Assembly: GCA_948433885.1 (NCBI GenBank)
Contig: CAOJEC010000003.1
Span: 5,184-69,183, forward strand
Direction of reading: 5' to 3'
Source of the DNA: an uncultured bacterium
Lineage (GTDB): Bacteria; Bacillota_I; Bacilli_A; RF39; UBA660
DNA: 64,000 nucleotides
Shown piece after piece: positions 1 to 10,294 of the stretch (position 1 is the first letter of the stretch; each line of letters starts with the position of its first letter). The notes beneath the pieces are model-generated. The model was not told the DNA's origin. It did no database searches and saw nothing but the letters and a program-made list of their open reading frames with translations. The translations under genes and the position numbers were made by a program.

Positions 1-902
1 AAAACCCTCTTGTTGGTTTAGTTGTTTGTGGGTATTGTGGTAATAATATGACAAGACGACCATATTATATAAGAAAAGACGCAAAACCTACAGTAAAACG
101 AGTTTACGAAGTTGATAAGACTAAGTTAAGATTATTGCTTCGAGAACATAAAGGAGACTATAGTCTAAACGATATAGCTAGAGCTTTAAAAGTATCTAAA
201 TGCTGCGTAGATCACTGGTTCGCTAGTAATGACGATAAATTTACTATGCCATACGCTAATAAATGGGAAGATTTAAAGAAATTATTAAATATAGAAACTA
301 CGGAGTTTGATAAAGCAGTAACTACATTAGAAGAAAGCATAACGCCAGTACACGTCGATACTCTTATGTGTAGTCGACCTAGATGTAAATGTGTATCAAG
401 TGATTTAGAACTTGTAGAAACAAAAATATTACAAACATTAAAAATAATAAAAGAAGATTATAAAAAATATGTTGATAATTACGAAGAAGAAGTAAAAAAA
501 GAAATAAGAGATAATAAGGAAATTATACAAGTGATAGATAATGAAATCGACAAAGTCAATTCACAAATTGAAAAAGCGTGTGAATTAGTAGAGGCTGGAG
601 CTTATACTAAAGAGCTTTTTAAAAAAAGAATAGATGTTTTAAATAATCAATTAGAAGCACTAATAAATCAAAAACAAGAGTTACCTAACGCAAATAATAT
701 AACACAAGAATTTAATAATAAAAAGAAAGCAATACCTATTTTAGAAGACATTTTGAGTAAATATGCGCCTGAAATGACGGCCGAAGAAAAAAACGAGTTA
801 TTATCTACAATAATCAAAAAAGTTATATATAAAAAAGACCGTGGAGGCCGTTATTTAAAGGAAAATTTCAGTATTGATATTATTTTATTGCCCTTTGACT
901 GA
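1..902 (+). CDS. Large serine recombinase, C-terminal part (5' end lies outside the window)
   Basis: The frame is open from nt 3 (NPLVGLVVCGYCGNNM...). It has a zinc-ribbon CxxC pair, a second Cys cluster (CSRPRCKC), then a long heptad-rich coiled coil (KEDYKKYVDNYEEEVKKEIRDNKEI...), which is typical of LSR C-terminal domains. The segment is very AT-rich compared with the flanking DNA. Confidence 0.8.
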   Translation, partial: NPLVGLVVCGYCGNNMTRRPYYIRKDAKPTVKRVYEVDKTKLRLLLREHKGDYSLNDIARALKVSKCCVDHWFASNDDKFTMPYANKWEDLKKLLNIETTEFDKAVTTLEESITPVHVDTLMCSRPRCKCVSSDLELVETKILQTLKIIKEDYKKYVDNYEEEVKKEIRDNKEIIQVIDNEIDKVNSQIEKACELVEAGAYTKELFKKRIDVLNNQLEALINQKQELPNANNITQEFNNKKKAIPILEDILSKYAPEMTAEEKNELLSTIIKKVIYKKDRGGRYLKENFSIDIILLPFD

Positions 903-917
903 TAACATAATCGTAAA
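1..917. mobile_element. Right end of an integrated element (prophage/ICE-like) carrying the serine recombinase. The junction with host DNA is at about 903-925.
   Basis: Composition shifts abruptly from ~25% GC to ~45-48% GC immediately after the recombinase stop codon (900-902). Host-side homology to CotJC begins at about 918-921. Confidence 0.6.
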
Positions 918-1295
918 AATGAATTCGGTCACGCTGAAATGATCGGTGCGATGGTACACATGTTGACTAAAGATGCCACGTTGAAAGAAATGGAAGAAGC
1001 CGGCCTCGATGGCATGTATGCAGAACACGGTAAAGGTATCTATCCTTCCGATGCCAACGGCGTTCCTTTCTCGGCGATGACTTTCGCTTCCACGGGAGAC
1101 TATCTTGCGGACATTTCTGAAGATATGGCAGCCGAAGAAAAAGCTCGTGCTGCTTACGAAAGACTCATCGACATGGCAGAAGATCCTGCTTTGATCGAGC
1201 CGCTTCTCTTCTTGAGACAAAGAGAAATAGTTCATTTTCACCGTTTTAAAGAATTGTACGATTATTATAAAAAAGAGTACAAACAAAAAAAATAG
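906..1295 (+). pseudogene. cotJC: Manganese-catalase family spore coat protein CotJC, 3' two-thirds only (gene split by the element)
   Basis: The translation NEFGHAEMIGAMVHMLTKDAT...AAEEKARAAYERLIDMAEDP...FLRQREIVHFHRFKEL matches my memory of B. subtilis CotJC from about residue 60 (EEFAHLEMIATMVYKLTKDAT...AAEEKARATYQWLI...FLREREIVHSMRF). An in-frame stop sits at 903-905. About 60 N-terminal residues are missing. Confidence 0.75.
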
Positions 1296-2735: not shown

Positions 2736-3677
2736 ATGACTATCGTTTTTAAATTGAGTGATAACTTAAAAAGAGAAGTAATCGAGCATTATAAAGATAC
2801 TGCAAAACCTTCGCATCCGCCCTATTCGGTATTTCAAAGTGAAGATTGTGGTACAGTAGTAACATTATACGAATCGGGCAAGATCATGTTCCAAGGTGTC
2901 GGTGCAGACATCGACTACGCATTGTGGCGTGATCGCGAAGCGTTTTTGAACAGGAGAAATATCGATTCGGAACTTGCCAAAAAGGATGCCAAAGACCAAA
3001 AGAAAAAAGATGAGTTGAACGACTTGACATACAAATATGCGAGCACCGTAGGCTCCGATGAAGTTGGTACGGGAGATTACTTCGGTCCGATCGTCGTCAC
3101 CGCATCTTTCGTAAGTGTAGATAATATTAGCAAAATCGAAAGTTTAGGAGTCAGAGACTCGAAGAAGATAACTGATGAAAAAATCTTATCGATTGCACCT
3201 AAACTCATCAAAATGGTTCCGTATGTAAGTTACACCTTATCTCCTTCCGACTATAATCGCGTCGGTATTACGAACATGAACAAAGTAAAAGCCATATTGC
3301 ACAACAAAGTTTTAAATCTTCTTTTAAAGAAAGAAAGCTTCGAATATGACTACATCGTCGTCGATCAATTCTCACTCGTATCCAAATACTTCGAACACAT
3401 CAAAGAAGCACCTGAAAAAGTTACTAATATAGATTTTACGACTCACGCTGAAGATAAGTGCTTAAGTGTCGCGGTATCTAGTATCATAAGTAGATATATA
3501 TTCTTAGGTGAGATGAAAAAGATGAGCGAAAAATATGGAATGACAGTTCCTAAAGGAGCCGGTGCACAAGTTGACATCTTCGGTAAAGAATTTGTTCAAA
3601 AATTCGGCGAAGAGGAGTTGTCGAAAGCCGCTAAACTAAACTTCAAAAATACGGACAAAATAAAGAGGTCGTTGTAG
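2736..3677 (+). CDS. rnhC: Ribonuclease HIII
   Basis: The length, the N-terminal DUF3378-like domain and the GSDEVGTGDYFGPIVV catalytic motif fit RNase HIII. An RBS (gagaggag) is present. Confidence 0.9.
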   Translation: MTIVFKLSDNLKREVIEHYKDTAKPSHPPYSVFQSEDCGTVVTLYESGKIMFQGVGADIDYALWRDREAFLNRRNIDSELAKKDAKDQKKKDELNDLTYKYASTVGSDEVGTGDYFGPIVVTASFVSVDNISKIESLGVRDSKKITDEKILSIAPKLIKMVPYVSYTLSPSDYNRVGITNMNKVKAILHNKVLNLLLKKESFEYDYIVVDQFSLVSKYFEHIKEAPEKVTNIDFTTHAEDKCLSVAVSSIISRYIFLGEMKKMSEKYGMTVPKGAGAQVDIFGKEFVQKFGEEELSKAAKLNFKNTDKIKRSL

Positions 3678-3686
3678 ACCTCTTTT
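3663..3686. terminator. Bidirectional hairpin between convergent rnhC and holA
   Basis: aagaggtc-gttgta-gacctctt with flanking A and T runs. It overlaps both stop codons. Confidence 0.55.
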
Positions 3687-4623
3687 ACAATTCGAGTAAA
3701 AACTTTCTCAATTCATCATACCCTAAATTATCTTCACTTATGAGTTTCAAATTCATATTGCACAAATATAAAATAAGCGACTCCAATTTTTCTAAAGAAT
3801 ATTTCCCACTGGCATCTCTCAACAATTTAACTCGATAAGGGTGCATATTACCCATCTCTTTACTTATTTGATCGTTCGTATATTTCTTTTGAGCAAGCAG
3901 TTTTATGTTATATAATGCTTCGTATTCCTTGGCGATCATGACGACTAAAGGAACCAACTCCATTTTTGTAACCTCAGCATCGTCGATCATCTTCAAAGCT
4001 TTCTTTAAATCCATATTTATTATGGCATCCTTGAGACCAAAAGAGTCAGTCATATTGTAATTAGAAACATGCTCTTCGACATCTTGAAGGGTCACAATGG
4101 TGTTCTTCCCTTTGATTTTTTTTAACTTTTCGAATTCGTTTTTTGCTATGTCGTAATTGCCAGCACATTTCTCACAAAAAGCATCGAGAACATTTTTGGT
4201 CATTCCATAACCACTTGTCCGAAGTGTTTCTCCAAATATTTTAGCCAACTCGTAAGATTTACTTATTATGGGAGTTTCGATCACTGTCAATTTGGAAATT
4301 ATCGTTTTGAAAGTACTTTTAGCACTCGCCTTTTCATTGCTCGTAAATATCAATGTCGTATTTTCATTTGGCTCGGACAAATAAGCCTCCAAACTTGCCA
4401 AATCTTTTTCTCCATCTTTCTTTTTACTTCCATTTAAGACTTCAAAATTTCTTATGATGACTATCTTCTCCTCATCGAACATAGATCCATAACCGACATC
4501 TTCTAGTACACTTTTGAGCTCGATCTCCTCTAACGAATAAGAACTTGCCGGGCGTCCACATAAAATCTTCTCAATTTCGAGATCCACCAAATTAAAGCTG
4601 CTTCCGTATATTAAATAGTTCAT
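3685..4623 (-). CDS. holA: DNA polymerase III delta subunit
   Basis: The size is right, the N-terminus is MNYLIYG..., and it sits in the conserved position downstream of comEC as in Bacillus. The start moves to the ATG at 4623, preceded by GGGGAG. Confidence 0.8.
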   Translation of the reverse strand: MNYLIYGSSFNLVDLEIEKILCGRPASSYSLEEIELKSVLEDVGYGSMFDEEKIVIIRNFEVLNGSKKKDGEKDLASLEAYLSEPNENTTLIFTSNEKASAKSTFKTIISKLTVIETPIISKSYELAKIFGETLRTSGYGMTKNVLDAFCEKCAGNYDIAKNEFEKLKKIKGKNTIVTLQDVEEHVSNYNMTDSFGLKDAIINMDLKKALKMIDDAEVTKMELVPLVVMIAKEYEALYNIKLLAQKKYTNDQISKEMGNMHPYRVKLLRDASGKYSLEKLESLILYLCNMNLKLISEDNLGYDELRKFLLEL

Positions 4624-4802
4624 TTGTATTCTCCCCAATATAAATATATCACAAAATGTATCCCAATCGCAAGGGATACACTCGATAATTATCTCTATAT
4701 GAACACTCCTAGTAGTGGTTACTGTATTTTATGATAAAATCGGTCCCAAAGTTACACACCCGATTTTTTTAATCTCATCATGACGATTCATACATTCTCC
4801 TT

Positions 4803-5378
4803 TTAAGGTGGACACGTACTTATCTTGTATCCCCTTTTATTTAATTTAATCTCAATACTCCCGTCTATATCGGTTCTATAAATCCTACTTATTTTTATTG
4901 TATCCAATACGGACTTTTTCGGATGACCATATCTATTGTTCTTGCCTACACTTATGATCGAAAATTTCGGATCGATCTCATCTATAAAGTCTATACTCGA
5001 ACTCGTGTTGCTGCCGTGATGCCCAACTTTTAAAAAATCTATATCCAAGTTATAATTTTTTATTAAGTCTTCCTCGACTTTAACTCCCGCGTCGCCCATG
5101 AATAAAAATTTACGATCGTTCAATTTTGTATAAACGACGACCGAATTGTCATTCTCATTGCCATGATCTTTATCGTTTAAAAAATATAATTTGTTTCCTT
5201 CTACGTTCAATTCCTCGATACATGAATAATATGGTATTTCCCTTCTCTTCAAATCGTCGATGAGTTCTTTTTCTAAACCGTCGTAAGCACCACAGTTGAA
5301 GATCACCTCACCGACTTTCATGTTTTCTACTATATTCGACGCATCTCCCATGTGATCGTAATCACCATGTGGTGATTA
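4803..5378 (-). pseudogene. comEC: Displaced ancestral 3' end of comEC (metallo-beta-lactamase domain fragment)
   Basis: The translation PHGDYDHMGDASNIVENMKVGEVIFNCG...TCPP is collinear with the last ~190 aa of the intact ComEC (6991-9054), and I estimate about 60% identity. The frame is closed by a stop two codons upstream of HGDYDH, and there is no RBS. The composition is host-like. Confidence 0.85.
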
Positions 5379-5443
5379 TCGGTTACGCACACAAATTAAA
5401 GTTTTTTATTTCAAAGAAAAAAGAACCATCAAATTGATAATTC

Positions 5444-6061
5444 TCACATTTTTTGAATTTTATCATCAGTTATTACCAATGATTCATCATTGGTAAGTTT
5501 ATATACATTATATTTATTTTGTTTTACCAATTCATTGTATAGTTCTTCTCTTTTTAAAGGATTAAATTCTTCTGCTTCACAATGAGGAATAATTATTCCA
5601 TCAAATAACCCTAATGCATCAAAATTATCTAGATTGCAATAATTATCATCTAGTGAAAGTAAATGTTCTATATTTTTTGTAACTATATGAGCTCCACAAG
5701 AACCTCCAATATAAATTACACCATTTTTTATATAATTGATTATATGTTTATCGAATCTAGAATCCTTAATTTTCTTTAATGTTGCAAATGTATTACCACC
5801 ACTTATATATAATAAATCAATATCTAAATTTATAAATCTATCTGCATTTTCTTCATCAAACACATATATATTTTCTTTGTTTATAAAACCATCATCACAT
5901 AATCTATTATAGTACTTATCAGAATATATTTTTTCTTTTGTCGCCTTTTCATTTGGAATAAATAAAACTTTGCATTTATCTAAATCTTTATCTATATTAC
6001 TTAGAATAGTATTTTTCGAATTCTCATTAATAAAATCACATGAACTAAGAATCATTTTCAT
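5444..6061 (-). CDS. Peptidase S51 (dipeptidase E)-like protein
   Basis: ISGGNTF...GGSCGAHIV resembles the PepE family GGNT / GxSAG motifs. An extended -10 (tgatataat) and an AGGATG Shine-Dalgarno sequence lie upstream of the ATG at 6061. Confidence 0.6.
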   Translation of the reverse strand: MKMILSSCDFINENSKNTILSNIDKDLDKCKVLFIPNEKATKEKIYSDKYYNRLCDDGFINKENIYVFDEENADRFINLDIDLLYISGGNTFATLKKIKDSRFDKHIINYIKNGVIYIGGSCGAHIVTKNIEHLLSLDDNYCNLDNFDALGLFDGIIIPHCEAEEFNPLKREELYNELVKQNKYNVYKLTNDESLVITDDKIQKM

Positions 6062-6087
6062 TTCAATCACATCCTATTAACATTATA

Positions 6088-6978
6088 TCATACCAATTCA
6101 TATTCTCTAGCAATTATTCTATCATCAGAACAATATTTTATTACGTATTCATTATCTTGTTTACAAATTATTATTCCAACTGTATCATTTTCTTCAATTG
6201 TTTTTATATTTTTATTAATATAATTCATATATGTCATAATTTGACCTGTGTGTTCTTTCTTTAATTCAGTTACTTTCAATTCTACAACTGTATAACATTT
6301 ATATTTAATATTATATAAAAGCAAGTCAATATAATTATAGGCATTTCCTACTTTAATTCTATATTCATTACCAACATAAGTAAAACCAGAACCTAATTGA
6401 ATCAAAAAATCATCTAAATGATTTAGTATTAATTGTTTTAATGCATATTCAGTCAATTCTTCTTCAAATGAATTTGTTTTTATAATAATAGGATTTGGTA
6501 CTAAATCATTAACATATAATTGTTCTTTAGTAATAAGTTTATTTTTAGTTTTATCACTTAATCTATCATATTCATGATTTTTTATTTTTTCTTGCAATTG
6601 TCTTTTGGACAAATTGTTTTTCTCACATATATAAATATAATATATGATTTCATCAATATTTTTAATTGTTATTAATTCTCTATAATGACTCCAACTCAAT
6701 TTTGAACCCAGTGGGTTCAATTTTTCGTTGCTAAATACTTCATAAAATTTTCTCATTCCGTAAAGTGTTCTTTCATTATATTTTTTACCAACTTCTAACA
6801 TTAGACTTTTAGAATATTGTTTAATTATATTTTTACCATATTCTTTACCAGCCTCACTTAAAAGTTTCCCTGTTTCAAAATATACACTAACTTTATGCCT
6901 ATCTTTTGAGTAATCTTTGGCTCTATCATATATTTCACTTTTTATTAACTTTTCTTTTATCTCATTATAATAATTCAT
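6088..6978 (-). CDS. YhcG-like PDDEXK nuclease (DUF1016 family)
   Basis: The N-terminal helical region and the C-terminal IDLLLYN...VVELKV...K pattern (D...ExK) recall YhcG/DUF1016. AAGGAG RBS. Confidence 0.6.
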   Translation of the reverse strand: MNYYNEIKEKLIKSEIYDRAKDYSKDRHKVSVYFETGKLLSEAGKEYGKNIIKQYSKSLMLEVGKKYNERTLYGMRKFYEVFSNEKLNPLGSKLSWSHYRELITIKNIDEIIYYIYICEKNNLSKRQLQEKIKNHEYDRLSDKTKNKLITKEQLYVNDLVPNPIIIKTNSFEEELTEYALKQLILNHLDDFLIQLGSGFTYVGNEYRIKVGNAYNYIDLLLYNIKYKCYTVVELKVTELKKEHTGQIMTYMNYINKNIKTIEENDTVGIIICKQDNEYVIKYCSDDRIIAREYELV

Positions 6979-6990
6979 ATTAGCTCCTTT

Positions 6991-9054
6991 CTATGGTGGG
7001 CATGTTTCAATTTCTAATTTATTATTTTTGATTTTAAACATAATACTTCCTTCTTGATCTGTTCTATATATCTTTGAATCTTCTAAATTATCTAACACAC
7101 TAATATTTGGATGTCCATATCTATTATTCTTTCCTACGCTAATAACTGAATATTTAGGATTAATTTCATCAATAAAAGTTTTGCTAGAGCTTGTCTTACT
7201 CCCATGATGACCTACTTTTAATGCATCAATATTTTTTAAATTATATTTTTCTATTAAATCTTCTTCTACATCTACTCCTGCATCACCCATAAATAGAAAT
7301 TTATGATTATTAAGTTCTGTATAAATAACTGATGAATTATCATTCTCATTACCATAGTCTTTGTTATTTAAAAAATATAATTTATTGTTATCAATATTTA
7401 ATTCTTTAATACAAGAATAATACGGTATTTTCTTTTTAGCTAACACTTTAATTAATTCTTGTTCTAAATCATTAAACTCACCACAATTAAATATTACTTT
7501 CTCTACTTTGAAGTTATTTACTAAATTAATTGCTTCACCCATATGGTCATAGTCGCCATGAGTCAAAATTAGACTATCAACTCTATCTAAGCCGAGAGAA
7601 TGCAAATAAGTCACAATATTATCTGAGACTTTATAATTCGATTTACTATCGACTATGCCACCCGTATCTATGAGTACGATTTTTTTATTATGTTCGGTTC
7701 TTATGATAGCACAATCTCCTTGTCCGACATCCATGAATTCGACGTGTAGACTTGAGTCTAACAAAGGCTTAACCTTCCATAGCAAACATAATGTGATCAA
7801 AATCACGGCCGTCTTGTAAATCGATTTTCTTATAAATAAAATCAAAACGGCATAGTACAAAATGAATATCCAAGCGTTCAATTTAGGAACGATGAATATA
7901 AATTGATTTACCTCGGCACATATCGTATTGAGTAACTCCAAACCGTTTATAAACAATCCGGTTATCGGTTCTAACCACCTAACGAAGAAAGTCAATAAAC
8001 AAAGAGGATAGATGACAATCGAGACGAACGGAACGAACAACAAATTGAAAAACACACTTGCCAAATTGAACTTGTAAAAATTGTGTATCGTAATGGGTAA
8101 ACTGAACAAATTGGCTACCAAACTTGTTCCAAATATTTTGTGTTTCTCTATCGTCTTCGAAGAATAGATGAGTCCAAAAGTTGTTACATAAGAATATATA
8201 AAGCCCACATCGAATATCATTCTATAATCGAAAAGTACGAGAATCACCCCTACTAAAAATAACAGTTTGAGTTTTGGAATTTGCCAATTCGCCCATTTGT
8301 CTACCGCCACAAAAGTAAATAGAAGTCCTGCCCTAATCACACTTGCGCCGAAGCCTGCCAAGAAAGCATAAAACCAAATGAATATGACGACATACAAATC
8401 GACGTTTTTCTTTTTTATTTTACACTTTTTTAAAATCTTCCCTATTATCACCGCAAACAAACCGACATGCATACCCGATATTGCAAATAAATGTGTCACA
8501 CCATTGTCTCTATATTTCGAAAAAGTATCGTCATCCAACAACGATTTGTCTCCTATTATCATCGTATACAAATAATCTTTAATTTTAAAAGTCATCACCC
8601 TATCTATCACGGCGTTTTTGATTTTATAAAAAATGTTCATCGTTTTATCGATTACTTCTATCTCCTCGATAGTGCAAGTGTAATAAATTCCCTTATTGTA
8701 TAAATATTGACGATAATCGAAAGTATTGGGAACTGTATTCTTACTCGGTATCTTCAGCTTCCCCTTTACAGCTACCTTGCTCCCTAACGGTATGGATTTC
8801 CATAGATCTTCTTTCCGGTCGGCCTCGTCACTATAATAAGAACACAAAAGTGTTTCTTCTCCATCGAGTTCGAAAGATATTTTATTGCTTGTCACACTCC
8901 TTTTGACGACTGTCCCTTCGAAAACATCATCATCTATTTGATAAATAGAATTTCTCTCGACAGCCATCGCCAAGAATAGATGAACAATTGTCCCGATGAA
9001 TAAAAATACATAAAGTAAATTACCTTGAAGTACTCTTTTTATTTTGTTTTTCAT
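6991..9054 (-). CDS. comEC: DNA internalization competence protein ComEC/Rec2 (the 3' ~550 nt come from the inserted cassette)
   Basis: N-terminal OB-like region, a polytopic competence domain, and a C-terminal MBL domain (MDVGQGDC, THGDYDH, VGHHGS). It lies downstream of comEA. Confidence 0.9.
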   Translation of the reverse strand: MKNKIKRVLQGNLLYVFLFIGTIVHLFLAMAVERNSIYQIDDDVFEGTVVKRSVTSNKISFELDGEETLLCSYYSDEADRKEDLWKSIPLGSKVAVKGKLKIPSKNTVPNTFDYRQYLYNKGIYYTCTIEEIEVIDKTMNIFYKIKNAVIDRVMTFKIKDYLYTMIIGDKSLLDDDTFSKYRDNGVTHLFAISGMHVGLFAVIIGKILKKCKIKKKNVDLYVVIFIWFYAFLAGFGASVIRAGLLFTFVAVDKWANWQIPKLKLLFLVGVILVLFDYRMIFDVGFIYSYVTTFGLIYSSKTIEKHKIFGTSLVANLFSLPITIHNFYKFNLASVFFNLLFVPFVSIVIYPLCLLTFFVRWLEPITGLFINGLELLNTICAEVNQFIFIVPKLNAWIFILYYAVLILFIRKSIYKTAVILITLCLLWKVKPLLDSSLHVEFMDVGQGDCAIIRTEHNKKIVLIDTGGIVDSKSNYKVSDNIVTYLHSLGLDRVDSLILTHGDYDHMGEAINLVNNFKVEKVIFNCGEFNDLEQELIKVLAKKKIPYYSCIKELNIDNNKLYFLNNKDYGNENDNSSVIYTELNNHKFLFMGDAGVDVEEDLIEKYNLKNIDALKVGHHGSKTSSSKTFIDEINPKYSVISVGKNNRYGHPNISVLDNLEDSKIYRTDQEGSIMFKIKNNKLEIETCPP

Positions 9055-9271
9055 CTTTATGTTTATTATTCAATTTCGAACTGAAAGTCACAAATTCAGC
9101 TTCCATGATACGCATGTTGTCACTCGAAAAAGCTTCGCCAAACTCCGCCTCCAAAGTAGGCCCCAATTCTTCCAAAAACTTTTCGTATTTTTCTTCTCCA
9201 AATCTCAAATAATAATTATGTAAAAATTTCCCCATATTCATCCTAAAATCTTTAACATCATTTTTCTTCAT
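9020..9271 (-). CDS. Hypothetical 83-aa protein in the comE operon (in the position comEB occupies in Bacillus)
   Basis: A strong RBS (AGGAGGG) precedes the ATG at 9271. The gene is wedged between comEA and comEC and overlaps the comEC start by 35 nt. I recognise no family. Confidence 0.5.
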   Translation of the reverse strand: MKKNDVKDFRMNMGKFLHNYYLRFGEEKYEKFLEELGPTLEAEFGEAFSSDNMRIMEAEFVTFSSKLNNKHKDEKQNKKSTSR

Positions 9272-9280
9272 AATTCCCTC

Positions 9281-9997
9281 CTATAGTGTCAATTGATTTT
9301 TAATTTTTTCGTAAAGTGCTTCTCCGATGCCACTTACTTTTTGAATATCTTCGACTTTGTCAAAAGGACCATTGCTTTCCCGATATTCTATTATGGCCTT
9401 GGCTTTCGATTCACCTATGCCATCCAAAGTCAATAGCTCTTCTAAAGTTGCTTTGTTCAACGAAACTTTTTTATCCGATGACGGTTTTTGAGCATCGTCA
9501 TTTTTATTTTGATCGTTTCCATTGACCGACGGACATTCGGTTATCGTAACGGTCTCACATTCACATTTTGGAACTTCACAAACCACTTCGTTAGCCATTT
9601 CCTTCTTTTTGAGTTCGTCCTTCGTAAAAACGTACACGACCATCTCATCGTTAATCTTTTTAGAAAGATTGATATTGACGGTTGTGCCATTCTTGCCTAT
9701 TCCTCCTGCTGCGACGATTGCATCTTGAATCTTAGAACCGTCGTCTAATGTATAGACACCCGGTTTTTTGACTGCACCCTTGACGTCGACAGTCAACTGT
9801 TTAGATACTTCATCACCTTCATCAGTCACGTTTTCGAACTCATCTTCACAAAAGCATTCTTGACAATCGGAAACGTCGTGCAAACTCACATTGACATAGA
9901 TAAAACTTCCTACAAGCGAAATCAATCCAAAAAGGATAGCCAATATGCTTACCAAGTTACGTTTAACGATCTCAAAAATATCTTCCAAATAGTTCAT
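9281..9997 (-). CDS. comEA: Competence protein ComEA (DNA receptor)
   Basis: N-terminal transmembrane segment, an SLBB-like segment (VDVKGAVKKPGVYTL), and a C-terminal helix-hairpin-helix (LLTLDGIGESKAKAIIEYR...VSGIGEALYEKI). Confidence 0.85.
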   Translation of the reverse strand: MNYLEDIFEIVKRNLVSILAILFGLISLVGSFIYVNVSLHDVSDCQECFCEDEFENVTDEGDEVSKQLTVDVKGAVKKPGVYTLDDGSKIQDAIVAAGGIGKNGTTVNINLSKKINDEMVVYVFTKDELKKKEMANEVVCEVPKCECETVTITECPSVNGNDQNKNDDAQKPSSDKKVSLNKATLEELLTLDGIGESKAKAIIEYRESNGPFDKVEDIQKVSGIGEALYEKIKNQLTL

Positions 9998-10077: not shown

Positions 10078-10089
10078 GAACATTTGTTC
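10078..10089. promoter_or_regulatory. Cheo-box-like palindrome GAACATTTGTTC (possible LexA operator)
   Basis: It matches GAAC-N4-GTTC in the comEA / RHH-gene intergenic region. About one such match is expected by chance in 64 kb. Confidence 0.25.
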
Positions 10090-10294
10090 GTATCTTCTTC
10101 CAAAAATAAAAATTGACAAATCTCGTCATTGCCAATTTTACTTTTTCTTTTGCCTATATACACTGCCTATTATCATAACTTTTGACTGTTTTTCATTTTC
10201 TGCTGAAAATACACCCTATTTTTCGACCGATAGCATAATGCAGGCATAATTTTTTGCCATTTTTTGTTAATCTATATACAAAAGGAGTACCGCG

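Follow-up and report, generated by a model that had tools for sequence, protein, structure and literature searches.

Replacement of the 3′ end of comEC by a cassette probably delimited by a serine-integrase phage attachment site

The DNA analyzed here, referred to as the window, is a stretch of 64,000 nucleotides from an uncultured bacterium in which an intact comEC gene is followed by an additional copy of the ComEC C-terminus. The elements of the comEC locus named in a preliminary description are all present where it had placed them; to these we add a yhcG 5′ remnant and a conserved 27-nt motif that it had not noted. Everything lies on the minus strand:

9281–9997, minus strand: comEA (SLBB and HHH domains), which opens the comEA-orf83-comEC unit; the order matches that of the empty-site loci L001/L002
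6991–9054, minus strand: intact comEC, 687 aa, with DUF4131, Competence, and Lactamase_B domains
7561–9054, minus strand: host-derived portion of comEC, codons 1–498, with DUF4131, the Competence domain, and the first ∼57 MBL residues
7534–7585, minus strand: attB-type junction in the intact comEC, with host arm ...CTAATTTTGACT, crossover CA (7560–7559), and donor sequence TGGCGACTATGACC...
5370–7560, minus strand: entire insert, 2,191 bp with one CATGG copy counted
6991–7560, minus strand: cassette-borne ComEC C-terminus, HGDYDHMG...TCPP, 189 codons plus stop, in frame with the host N-terminal portion
6088–6978, minus strand: YhcG/DUF1016 PD-(D/E)XK nuclease-family gene (Pfam YhcG_C 6.6e-36, DUF1016_N 4e-25)
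5444–6070, minus strand: Peptidase_S51 (PepE-like) cargo gene (Pfam 1.3e-29)
5417–5444, minus strand: terminator-like hairpin AGAATTATCA-ATTT-GATGGTTCT plus T-run, read off the sequence, which ends the cargo
5370–5396, minus strand: 27-nt non-coding motif ATTTGTGTGCGTAACCGATAATCACCA, abutting the orphan
5344–5369, minus strand: right-hand crossover CA (5369–5368) and putative host B′ half-site; from CATGGTGATTACGATCAC on, the sequence is again that of the host and matches L001 exactly
4803–5369, minus strand: displaced ComEC C-terminus (orphan), an open frame of 188 codons plus stop
4729–4791, minus strand: yhcG 5′-end remnant MNRHDEIKKIGCV..., behind the orphan and seen too in the empty-site locus L001
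3685–4638, minus strand: holA (DNA polymerase III delta, Pfam), the ancestral comEC neighbor, with 100% aa identity in L001/L002

The insert carries the new C-terminus, yhcG, the S51 peptidase gene, the terminator, and the 27-nt motif, which we interpret below as a phage P arm. Gene calls and domain annotation of the insert revealed no recombinase, in line with the preliminary description, which had recognized neither an integrase nor a transposase among the cargo. Along the locus, the GC content drops from ∼35% to 20–25% between ∼7540 and ∼5400 (insert 23.2%, orphan 35.4%, host-derived comEC portion 34.7%, whole window 36.4%), which bears out the AT-rich insert and host-like orphan first described. 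Alignment of the 188-aa orphan to ComEC residues 499–687 gave 68% identity (E = 2e-89), confirming that there are two copies of the C-terminus and that these are collinear through the final TCPP. The similarity between the copies does not end at the stop codons but takes in the first 9 yhcG codons. The two 23-nt blocks (5347–5369 and 7538–7560) agree at 18 of 23 positions, as had been reported, with mismatches at 6, 9, 12, 15, and 18, all of them third codon positions. The YhcG/DUF1016 gene matches PADLOC candidate PDC-S02 (2e-64) and phrog_22762. It is no exotic cargo, contrary to the initial description: yhcG or a remnant of it usually adjoins comEC throughout the clade, the host's empty-site allele included, and in 33 of 56 species loci no other gene comes between comEC and yhcG. 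The S51 peptidase is 95% identical (aa) to its counterpart in a cassette of another species (L016) and 82–83% identical to those in L093/L094, and the terminator-like hairpin is also present ahead of the P arms in L007, L009, L016, L043, L065, and L075.

Related strains with an uninterrupted comEC–holA arrangement, which the preliminary description had led us to expect, do exist. The host-derived portion of ComEC is 99% identical (aa) to the N-termini of P0002/P0003 from such strains, in which a functional, orphan-type C-terminus (97% aa identity to the orphan) is in frame and holA directly follows comEC. The insert is missing from L001/L002, window positions 5369–3601 are collinear with L001 9495–11266 at 98.4%, and haplotype 2 of the orphan equals the functional L001/L002 copy at every variable site. 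With distant relatives (P0036/P0040), identity is 89–90% for the new C-terminus but only ∼40% for the N-terminus. These empty-site strains and donor-like relatives support the original reading that the AT-rich segment came in by horizontal transfer and took the place of the comEC 3′ end, the orphan being the ancestral end. The insertion is polymorphic within the species; at least 22 contigs carry the insert, and in these the orphan is without signs of decay. A search for the cassette elsewhere located it in the other species, L016, where the C-terminus, yhcG, pepE, motif, and orphan occur in identical order at 78% nucleotide identity, and found none on IMG/VR phage contigs. Because this compact layout recurs, the cassette appears to have moved as a unit. 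Its parts differ in their closest relatives: L003/L008/L072 for the C-terminus, L018 (82%) for YhcG, and L016 for PepE.

At the left junction, the window equals L001 up to ACTCATGG and is donor-like from the following base. The break relative to the empty-site allele falls exactly at CATGG, and the crossover can be placed no more precisely than within these 5 nt; the direct repeats at the insert ends are spaced 2,191 bp apart. Between the host and donor blocks, stretches of identity are short throughout, with CATGG among the two longest, and the junctions alone are therefore compatible with short-homology recombination. We interpret the motif at the other end (5370–5396) as a half-site, the P arm in a B-type variant, of the attP of a phage with a serine integrase. 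We found no exact phage match to this variant; the closest, identical at 21 of 27 positions, is the attR P arm of lysogen L149, and the attP of phage L099 is identical at 19 of 28. The P arm with the right-hand CA and B′ half-site would then form an attR-type site, and the left junction (7560) a regenerated attB. The copies do meet at a conserved block, as first described, but the meeting point itself is the central CA of the attachment site of a large serine recombinase (LSR), with a probable attP half-site at the far end.

Temperate LSR phages integrate in comEC at ACT-CA-TGG, with strand exchange at the CA, in the His codon of the metallo-beta-lactamase (MBL) motif HGDYDHMG, and their attP, attL, and attR were all found. 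The integrase of one IMG/VR phage (L096/L098) is 473 aa long and combines Resolvase, Recombinase, and Zn_ribbon_recom domains. The attP of this phage, ATTCGACTTACTTTTTGACAATCACCA-CA-TGGAGGTATGTGGTTAGTAAGTCGAAT, lies directly 3′ of the integrase stop codon and forms an imperfect palindrome of 56 bp, in which the outermost 12 nt on either side are inverted repeats without a mismatch; the left half is 100% identical over 32–34 nt to the junctions that precede orphans in 7 species. With integrases at 65–73% identity, the attP variants share a CCA-CA-TGG center and include a B-type arm resembling the window motif. In lysogens, attL with an identical integrase occurs in 7 distinct comEC alleles, each reading ...AC(N)-CA-TGG followed by P′, at the position of the window's left junction, and attR was found in L095 and L149. 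The integrase accepts very different B arms, and other MBL-fold genes too. None of the phages found has a ComEC C-terminus of its own, and their integration truncates ComEC. We found no cassette-carrying phage or lysogen; a clade-type ComEC C-terminus was on no IMG/VR contig searched, and the integrase gene, P′ arm, and phage body DNA were absent from all ∼90 comEC loci.

Extra copies of the ComEC C-terminus are present in about two thirds of the genomes of related species, all gut bacteria (38 of 56), in arrays that hold up to five displaced fragments and always extend at the comEC-proximal end. All 35 full-length orphans begin at the crossover CA, and a recognizable P arm lies ahead of all but one or two of them. 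The motif has the same position and length ahead of 35 orphans in ∼30 genomes, with identities of 0.91 (type A) and 0.83 (type B) against ∼0.63 in the flanks (background) and 0.5 at downstream third codon positions; the type-A array motifs are identical to the phage P arm. In L021 and L074, the same orphan type follows differing P-arm types at identical junction positions. The two parts of ComEC differ in mean clade-wide identity, which is 76% for residues 499–687 and 38% for residues 1–498 (r = 0.03), and the step sits within the MBL domain, at residue 499. In some closely related pairs, such as L021/L074, identity inside the C-terminus is mosaic, which indicates that homologous exchange occurs as well. 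Cassettes of one kind have accumulated behind comEC, and part of a core gene thus behaves as mobile DNA.

We think it probable, with some reservation, that the insert is a non-autonomous cassette whose ends were set by an LSR-phage attachment site and which a phage integrase moved via an alternative attR. The cassette would lack an integrase because the enzyme is phage-encoded and acts in trans, and standard integrase reactions would suffice for the proposed route. A prophage would reside in the comEC of a donor that already holds comEC-cassette-attR-orphan. Its excision via the second attR, not the first, would place the cassette on the phage circle, and attP × attB integration would carry it into the next host. 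Later excision via the first attR would leave the cassette in frame with the host comEC 5′ part and shift the resident 3′ end downstream. Repeated cycles could build arrays and spread one ComEC C-terminus family, with the adjoining YhcG/DinD genes, across species. We infer both the alternative-attR excision and that the integrase, not homologous recombination, moved the cassette of the window. The first two-attR array may, speculatively, go back to a tandem duplication within a lysogen.

Homologous or short-homology recombination as the sole process, for example after natural transformation, is in our judgment unlikely, although several observations speak for it. In this case, the P-arm junctions would go back to one or a few phage integrase events, and HGDYDHMG-coding blocks or the ∼75% identical C-terminal sequence flanking the cassettes would allow host recombination to insert, delete, and exchange them, by analogy with the displacement of effector and immunity genes at T6SS, Rhs, and CDI loci. 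The short identical runs that include CATGG, the mosaic C-termini, the different closest relatives of the C-terminus, YhcG, and PepE, and the uptake machinery that these very bacteria encode agree with such a process, by which T6SS arrays are thought to have formed (PMC5361080). However, in the single cleanly resolved event (window versus L001), both junctions fall in one and the same 5-nt stretch, at the far 5′ limit of a potential homology tract of ∼570 bp. The P arms are also far more conserved than the adjoining neutral sequence and identical to the attP of a living phage, as would be expected if they passed repeatedly through a functional attP, and the L021/L074 junctions coincide despite their different P-arm types.

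A noncanonical reaction, in which phage integrase inserted free cassette circles with a P-arm/CA/C-terminus (attR-type) site into an intact comEC attB, seems to us quite improbable. It would resemble the movement of ccr-less SCC elements by Ccr recombinases, or integron cassettes, and it suits the structure, which is that of a simple circle insertion at CA with the core directly repeated, as well as the comEC-proximal array growth and the integrase's tolerance toward its targets. Against it, phage LSRs such as Bxb1 and phiC31 are known to react only as attP × attB, or as attL × attR with a directionality factor; an attR-type × attB pair would not be permitted. It is very improbable indeed that a phage with its own comEC 3′ end integrated and then decayed in place by deletion of its integrase and structural genes. 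The right end of the insert as a phage P arm, the occurrence of YhcG and DinD families in phages (phrog_22762, phrog_8036), and the precedent of Tn1207.1, a defective remnant of this sort within celB/comEC of pneumococci (PMC4260502), would fit this history, but the phages found lack a ComEC C-terminus and truncate ComEC, no cassette contains phage body sequence, the compact layout is shared with another species, and the comEC–yhcG adjacency is the ancestral chromosomal context.

The streptococcal elements Phi1207.3, Phi10394.4, and Tn1207.1 (Streptococcus pyogenes, S. pneumoniae) are serine-recombinase prophage-type elements that are site-specific in comEC (celB) at a defined dinucleotide, and a short defective derivative occupies the same site (PMC4260502). 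Site-specific serine-recombinase integration inside comEC at a dinucleotide is common to both systems, but the target dinucleotide is GA there, whereas here it is CA, within the HxHxDH motif's His codon. The streptococcal elements disrupt comEC without a replacement 3′ end, whereas here one is supplied, and the arrays of displaced C-termini present here have not been described for them. ICESt1/ICESt3 and the CIMEs at the fda 3′ end are cis-mobilizable elements with tandem accretion (review, PMC5704250), and Dehalococcoides has tandem ssrA islands (PMC3146451). There, as here, non-autonomous att-bounded elements stand in tandem at a gene's 3′ end, newcomers adjoin the target gene, and older elements are displaced outward. 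In those systems an autonomous element integrates alongside and can excise via outer sites with its neighbors aboard, whereas co-excision is only presumed for comEC. In ICESt1/ICESt3 the recombinases are of the tyrosine type and every site has the same core; here the mobilizer would be an LSR phage, and therefore only attL × attR pairs would be allowed. The traveling piece of the target gene is 189 codons of a catalytic domain here and a few terminal codons in CIME-type systems.

SCC composite islands at rlmH (orfX) are moved by Ccr large serine recombinases and share with the comEC cassettes, as we interpret them, the use of LSRs, a target that lies within the 3′ portion of a conserved gene, tandem build-up, and recombinase-less pseudo-elements mobilized in trans. 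SCC elements have recombinase-recognized ends on both sides and duplicate only the last rlmH codons, whereas comEC cassettes would have a phage arm on one side and the gene's coding sequence on the other. Prophage e14 in icd of E. coli K-12 brings a 3′ end that restores a hybrid gene, with the old 3′ end as a pseudogene at the far junction. The comEC insertion likewise rebuilds an intact hybrid gene from within the coding sequence and leaves the old end at the far junction, but e14 is a single element with its own integrase, whereas the comEC cassette has none, occurs in arrays of up to five fragments, and carries a replacement end not present on the phages found. LSR prophages also split host genes in A118 (Listeria comK), SPbeta (spsM), and skin (sigK). 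The comEC phages resemble these in their LSR, an attP beside int, and intra-ORF integration, as does a second LSR element, which is integrated inside the ORF of the window's Mn-catalase gene. In the A118, SPbeta, and skin systems the gene is restored by excision only, and we know of no replacement cassettes or orphan arrays left by such prophages.

C-terminal displacement in Rhs/CdiA polymorphic toxin and T6SS effector/immunity arrays (PMC5361080, PMC3967940) had been proposed as an analogy in the preliminary description. The likeness holds for the layout: a new C-terminus with an adjacent gene at a conserved demarcation motif, and the old C-terminus and its partner downstream as promoterless orphans, in arrays. 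It does not extend to function. The swapped part of ComEC is more conserved than the remainder rather than hypervariable, it includes the core catalytic motifs of a nuclease domain that has a housekeeping role, and it shows no evident toxin-immunity relation; the comEC junctions, in addition, appear to bear a phage attP half-site. The other resemblance drawn at the outset, to integrative elements with a replacement 3′ gene end of their own, is upheld.

The structure in the window is best described, from its sequence, as a non-autonomous cassette, predicted to be bounded by phage attachment sites, which has replaced the 3' third of comEC and recurs across a clade of gut Bacilli. The genes at the locus run in the order comEA, small ORF, comEC, YhcG/DUF1016, Peptidase_S51, ComEC fragment and holA.

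9281-9997, minus strand: comEA
6991-9054, minus strand: comEC, 687 aa
6088-6978, minus strand: YhcG/DUF1016 gene
5444-6070, minus strand: Peptidase_S51 gene
4803-5369, minus strand: ComEC C-terminal fragment (the orphan), 188 codons
4729-4791, minus strand: yhcG-start remnant behind the orphan, seen as similarity between the two copies
3685-4638, minus strand: holA

The preliminary description, a model's reading of the window alone, had claimed two copies of the ComEC C-terminus, and this is borne out: the orphan is 68% identical to ComEC residues 499-687 (E = 2e-89) and collinear with them from HGDYDHMG to the final TCPP. Its 23-nt blocks do match at 18 of 23 positions, with all five differences at third codon positions. 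The similarity of the copies extends beyond their stop codons into a ribosome-binding site and the first nine yhcG codons, and therefore leaves the yhcG-start remnant behind the orphan. The GC content falls to 20-25% between ∼7540 and ∼5400, and the contrast drawn between an AT-rich cassette and a host-like orphan holds (23.2% for the insert and 35.4% for the orphan, with 36.4% for the window). The absence of an integrase from the cassette is likewise confirmed, as the 2,191-bp insert holds only three ORFs, none of them a recombinase; a tblastn search with the phage integrase described below gave no match in the window or in ∼90 comEC loci.

Two strains show the locus before insertion. Among the ComEC homologues, proteins P0002 and P0003 are 99% identical to window ComEC residues 1-498, and their C-termini match the orphan at 97% identity but the current C-terminus of the window at only 69%. 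The contigs of the empty-site strains, L001 and L002, read comEA-orf-comEC-holA-rnhC uninterrupted, and L001 is continued by window 5369-3601 at 98.4% identity. The empty site with an in-frame ancestral 3' end, which the preliminary description expected in related strains, is thus present, with comEC followed directly by holA. Proteins P0036 and P0040 have N-termini only ∼40% identical to that of the window and C-termini 89-90% identical to its new one, and their source loci have 22% GC and the same gene order; the predicted donor of the cassette is a distant relative. In a five-way alignment, the window equals L001 up to ...TTGACTCATGG, is donor-like from the next base, and returns to host sequence at CATGGTGATTAC on the other side of the insert, with CATGG at both flanks. 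The insert brings a comEC 3' end that restores the reading frame and leaves the old end at the far junction. This exact arrangement is found on at least 22 contigs from many samples. The orphan occurs as two haplotypes, one of which matches the functional C-terminus of the empty-site strains at every variable site; the insertion is therefore recent and the orphan undecayed. Three findings rule out tandem duplication followed by divergence: the difference in GC, the existence of an empty-site allele and the donor-like relatives.

The interpretation first placed on these observations is only partly supported. The yhcG gene does lie in the insert, as described, but it is not exotic cargo, since the L001-type empty-site allele also has the yhcG-start remnant and yhcG belongs to the ancestral context. 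At locus L003 the yhcG gene has collapsed, and at L004 the beginning of a DinD-like gene is present. In a different species, L016 carries C-terminus, yhcG, pepE, junction and orphan in the window order, aligning with the window cassette over 2.7 kb at 78% nucleotide identity (PepE, 95% amino acid identity), and by this layout the cassette pre-existed as a unit. A donor search with the exact YhcG protein returned only the same species and layout, no record of the exact PepE was found, and scanning metagenomes with PepE turned up two short contigs, 82-83% identical.

We note several features upstream in the locus. An 83-aa ORF (window 9020-9271, minus strand) overlaps the comEC start and is weakly similar to the DUF1016_N part of PDC-S02/YhcG models (E = 1e-4); its position is conserved in L001 and in the comparison loci L085-L092. 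L016 has a YhcG gene upstream of comEA. In the window, a T-rich tract followed by GATACGAACAAATG lies upstream of comEA (∼10085-10100, minus strand; ∼90 nt before the comEA start), where TACGAACA matches the streptococcal ComX box, TACGAATA, at 7/8 positions. This region is a possible promoter specific to competence, which would drive comEA-comEC and, through the fusion, the cassette genes as well.

When species-representative genomes were scanned with the chimeric ComEC, 80 loci came up, all from uncultured gut MAGs, with titles that include "uncultured Bacilli bacterium", Firmicutes or Clostridium sp. CAG:582/914/1000, Ca. Coprovivens and Ca. Faecisoma (the last placed by NCBI in Mycoplasmatota). 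Over 3,783 pairs, mean identity is 38% for residues 1-498 and 76% for residues 499-687; the two values are uncorrelated (r = 0.03), and in 99.8% of pairs similarity is higher in the C-terminus. Close genomes reverse the relation, with N-terminal versus C-terminal identities of 93% vs 79% (L021/L074), 92% vs 81% (L009/L018) and 90% vs 76% (L078/L081). The step falls inside the MBL domain, where the mean rises from 0.50 over residues 442-498 to 0.77 over residues 499-555, and at the nucleotide level distant pairs step from 0.65 to 0.85 at the junction. These identities indicate that ComEC in this clade consists of a vertical N-terminal part and a mobile C-terminal part with unrelated histories. 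Apart from the window and L001, the close pairs whose breakpoints were compared (L021/L074, L009/L018, L056/L059) have histories too layered for a second clean comparison of insertion and empty site.

The orphan in the window is one instance of a common pattern. When the loci were searched by tblastn with parts of the window, extra ComEC C-terminal copies or fragments were found behind comEC in 38 of the 56 loci with at least 1.5 kb downstream of comEC; these include full-length extra copies in 19 loci and five fragments in two loci. All arrays (38/56 species) are in direct orientation, and the N-terminal 498 residues are never duplicated in the same loci. YhcG directly follows comEC in 33 loci; its place is taken by a DinD equivalog with a Bro-N domain in 13 loci and by another gene in 10. 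The YhcG and DinD families are the PADLOC defense candidates PDC-S02 and PDC-S13, both also have PHROG families, and both are known as inserts in restriction-modification loci (PMC9881135). The two partner genes are interchangeable and unlinked to the junction motif type, and the other cargo is diverse (S51 peptidase, Zn-phospholipase C-like, FGase-like, WDGH domain and others). In ∼17/20 full-length-orphan arrays, counted by eye, divergence from the cassette family grows with distance from comEC, identity falling to 38-55%, which fits displaced native ends. Short orphans form a separate class that covers only ComEC residues ∼139-189 (IPVGKNNRYGHP...) and is preceded by a conserved ATATGTACTAACTACTCAATACCA and then GTTGG. 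They occur at L024 9326, 10956, 12031, 12902 and 13681, L033 9566, L040 11217, L080 11159 and 12008, and L094 ∼3090, and some follow a P arm and a degenerate HGDYDHM block, as though a deletion had removed the middle 125 codons. The sequence ATATGTACTAACTACTCAATACCA, a second junction type, had no match in viral contigs.

Every one of the 35 full-length orphans, from ∼30 genomes, starts exactly at the His codon of HGDYDHMG. Directly before it lies a fixed-length non-coding motif, recognizable in 33-34/35 of this unbiased, orphan-based list, of type A (ATTCGACTTACTTTTTGACAATCACCA) or type B (ATTCGTATGCATAAACGTATGTCACCA); the window motif, ATTTGTGTGCGTAACCGATAATCACCA (5396-5370), is a B-type variant. 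Mean pairwise identity in junction sets chosen by motif match is 0.91 for type A and 0.83 for type B, compared with 0.61-0.66 in the flanks, the background for aligned AT-rich DNA, and 0.46-0.51 at third codon positions just downstream. Without exception the motif lies on the coding strand and is followed by CAYGG; it occurs once in the 64-kb window. The motif types are not tied to the cargo: A and B both terminate YhcG cassettes as well as DinD cassettes, which disposes of a cargo-motif link and of YhcG as a homing-type nuclease with its own site. Other candidate functions were rejected as well. An RNA element had no Rfam match in the arrays or the window, a promoter (TTGACA-N16-TATGAT in type A) is absent from type B, and no core sites of an integron attC were found. 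The B-type left arm resembles the XerC arm of E. coli dif (8-9/11, by eye) and the XerD arm is absent; the dif/Xer reading is superseded by the finding of a phage attP.

Searching viral contigs with the type-A motif led to L095, an integrated form, and L096, a phage contig. L096 and the phage contig L098 encode a 473-aa large serine recombinase with Resolvase, Recombinase and Zn_ribbon_recom domains (in L096 at 3540-4958; PF00239 1e-32, PF07508, PF13408; phrog_95 integrase 1e-99). Directly behind the integrase stop codon of L098 lies its attP, ATTCGACTTACTTTTTGACAATCACCA-CA-TGGAGGTATGTGGTTAGTAAGTCGAAT, which has the architecture of a serine-integrase attP: 27 + 2 + 27 nt with outer 12 nt that form perfect inverted repeats. 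Over 32-34 nt, array junctions in seven species match its left half and core at 100% identity, and the junction motif is accordingly read as a putative phage attP half-site. Four further phage contigs, L099-L102, share this attP architecture, and throughout L098-L102 the attP starts immediately past the integrase stop. The L099-L102 integrases are 65-73% identical, and their attP variants keep the CCA-CA-TGG center, with arms that include the GTGTGCATAA type, like that of the window.

Integrated forms place the target in comEC. The end of L097 is an attL, TTAATAATAACT-CA-TGGAGG..., whose host arm encodes the comEC codons LIIT; attL sites (L097, L137, L139-L144) and attR sites (L095, L149) all lie at AC(N)-CA-(T/C)GG of comEC. 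Two integrases of the L096 family, P0123, listed in 185 collection blocks, and P0121, could be followed to lysogens in which the integrase gene is convergent with a truncated comEC (480-513 aa) and comEA. The host backgrounds of these lysogens are clearly different and number seven; six share the identical P0123 and one has P0121, and all their junctions read ...AC(N) or AG(T)-CA-TGG, then P'. L148 is the phage in unintegrated form. On the attR side of the lysogen L149, a lysin and a terminator are followed by ATGTGTGTGCATAAAAACTAATCACCA-CA-CGG and the resident C-terminus; its P arm is identical to window 5396-5370 at 21/27 positions, with the same length and the same ATCACCA-CA-TGG center. 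The left window junction lies at the attB position of the phage integrase, and the junctions of the window cassette are predicted to correspond to att sites of this phage system. Among the viral contigs searched, no exact match to the P-arm variant of the window, no type-B motif and no close relative of the cassette C-terminus was found; a profile search gave only distant MBL proteins (30-47% identity). The ComEC C-terminus is absent from the phages found, and their integration truncates ComEC (HGGMWLVSRIT-stop in the L096 frame).

The same phage, with identical integrase P0123, also sits in other MBL-fold genes (L145 11436-11600; L146 and L147 11436-11606), at the equivalent ...(L/F)ITH-G position and next to ClpP or RhuM-UvrB-UvrA. 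From these positions, the target in effect appears to be the DNA for MBL motif 2 and not comEC alone. The comEC-targeting phages carry a 352-aa reverse transcriptase (RVT_1, YMDD motif) between tail and lysis genes (L102 11844-12902; L099 12140-13198; L148 14141-15199; L149 6755-7813), which suggests a diversity-generating retroelement in the phage. A lead from lysin P0280 proved irrelevant: it ended in a related group of phages that have tyrosine integrases and integrate at different sites. In the window at ∼4745-4775 (minus strand), between the yhcG remnant and holA, GGGTGTGTAACTTTGGGACCGATTTTATCA loosely resembles the B-type P arm GTGTGCGTAACCGATAATCACCA. The resemblance is weak; if it is a decayed P arm, the "ancestral" C-terminus of the host was itself an earlier cassette arrival. 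At window 1-1295, a second, unrelated large-serine-recombinase element lies in a Mn-catalase (CotJC-like) gene.

48-902, plus strand: ORF for the C-terminal part of an integrase (phrog_95 1.5e-15, weak CcrC match)
939-1295, plus strand: Mn-catalase fragment

Its junction is at 921, and the window matches the intact L085 gene only from GAATTCGG, inside the codons ...TEEFGHAEM. A 722-aa Resolvase+Recombinase protein interrupts the Mn-catalase gene of L086; in L085, L087, L088 and L089, the gene is intact and followed by cotJB.

How a cassette that lacks both an integrase and a P' arm reached comEC has to be inferred. As judged from the sequences, the left junction of the window is at the attB crossover and the right one is of attR type, with P arm, CA and host half-site. 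The route we consider probable is that the phage integrase moves the integrase-less cassette by excision at an alternative attR. The donor would hold a prophage in comEC with a cassette already present beyond it, and then a second attR. Excision by attL x attR(second) would carry the segment from attR through C-terminus and cargo into the phage circle, which would integrate into a new host by attP x attB. Later excision by attL x attR(first) would leave host N-terminus, cassette C-terminus, cargo, P arm, CA and resident C-terminus. This route would account for the exact junctions, for ∼90 loci free of phage DNA and integrase, for array growth at the comEC-proximal end and for an arm type independent of cargo. 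It would also explain purifying selection on P arms, because each round passes through a working attP, and one C-terminus family across hosts, because the phage demonstrably infects several. Among the viral and lysogen contigs searched, none was a cassette-bearing phage or a lysogen with an adjoining cassette.

Recombination between conserved blocks, for example after transformation, is an unlikely route by itself; it also seems to contribute, to judge from mosaic identity inside the C-terminus in close pairs. Less likely still is a non-canonical reaction of attR-type sites with attB on cassette circles, and a prophage decayed in place, set beside the same ∼90 phage-free loci, is very improbable. 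Excision at an alternative attR remains our preferred route. In L021 (7480-12043) and L074 (7480-9068), whose ComEC N-termini are 93% identical, the same divergent terminal orphan (HGDADHLGDSLNLLE, 98% nucleotide identity) sits behind a type-A arm in one genome and behind a type-B arm in the other, which independent insertions of two phage types at the same nucleotide would explain. More tentatively, and leaning somewhat to the doubtful side, we suggest that the C-terminal nuclease third of comEC and the defense-like genes behind it (YhcG/PDC-S02, DinD/PDC-S13, varied cargo) form a clade-wide, phage-mobilized cassette system. As parts of this joint reading, and with the same reserve, the arrays might be integron-like and built from serine-integrase attR sites, each new cassette might be expressed by in-frame fusion to the core gene, and excision at alternative attR sites could possibly spread cassettes between species and switch the C-terminus fused to comEC.

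A core gene is here split into vertical and mobile parts within a single catalytic domain. If the cassette-system reading is true, a housekeeping protein domain lives on as mobile DNA, spreading in sweeps through species and displacing their native versions, and a temperate phage with a large serine recombinase moves small non-phage cassettes between species by the two reactions normal to it, attL x attR and attP x attB. Such transfer would be a form of specialized transduction not described for this integrase class, and would place defense-candidate genes under control of the competence operon. It would also link the phages, whose integration destroys comEC, with cassettes under which comEC stays intact, a phage-competence conflict. 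The integrases and their sites are a natural series of related attP/attB pairs, potentially useful for engineering the genomes of uncultured gut Bacilli, and their host range is broad, one integrase being present in two other MBL genes and in no fewer than seven comEC alleles.

To our knowledge, neither comEC cassette arrays nor a domain-level vertical/mobile split of ComEC has been described, and no paper on comEC C-terminal cassette arrays was found in the literature searched. The arrays are not integrons: they have no tyrosine recombinase and their junction is half a serine-integrase attP, unlike the attC of an integron, with no Rfam match. They also differ from a diversity-generating retroelement, as the comEC locus has no reverse transcriptase and the copy differences involve all bases over 570 nt. 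The phage side belongs to the known large-serine-recombinase prophages that split genes, comEC included; streptococci are already known to harbor prophages with serine recombinases in comEC, where the site used is a different one (GA; PMC4260502). The layout looks like Rhs/CDI/T6SS orphan arrays, the last a published lookalike (PMC5361080), in that the 35 orphans start at a demarcation motif, HGDYDHMG. The Rhs/CDI analogy drawn in the preliminary description survives as far as orphan modules that begin at a conserved motif, but not for a hypervariable toxic C-terminus with an immunity gene (conservation of 0.76 vs 0.36-0.50). The system is not of the polymorphic-toxin class because the ComEC C-terminus is conserved and catalytic (MBL motifs) and comes without a toxin-immunity pair. 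Like e14 in icd, the insert supplies a replacement 3' end; unlike that autonomous type, it has no integrase of its own and so is not an autonomous integrative element. The cassettes would work like ICESt/CIME, ssrA islands and SCC composites, by tandem accretion and cis-mobilization at the 3' end of a gene. As with cis-mobilizable elements, they lack recombination genes, are bounded by attB-type and attR-type sites and form tandem arrays at one target. This logic of accretion and cis-mobilization is known from ICEs and CIMEs (PMC5704250), and in the model proposed here it would be applied to a serine-integrase phage.
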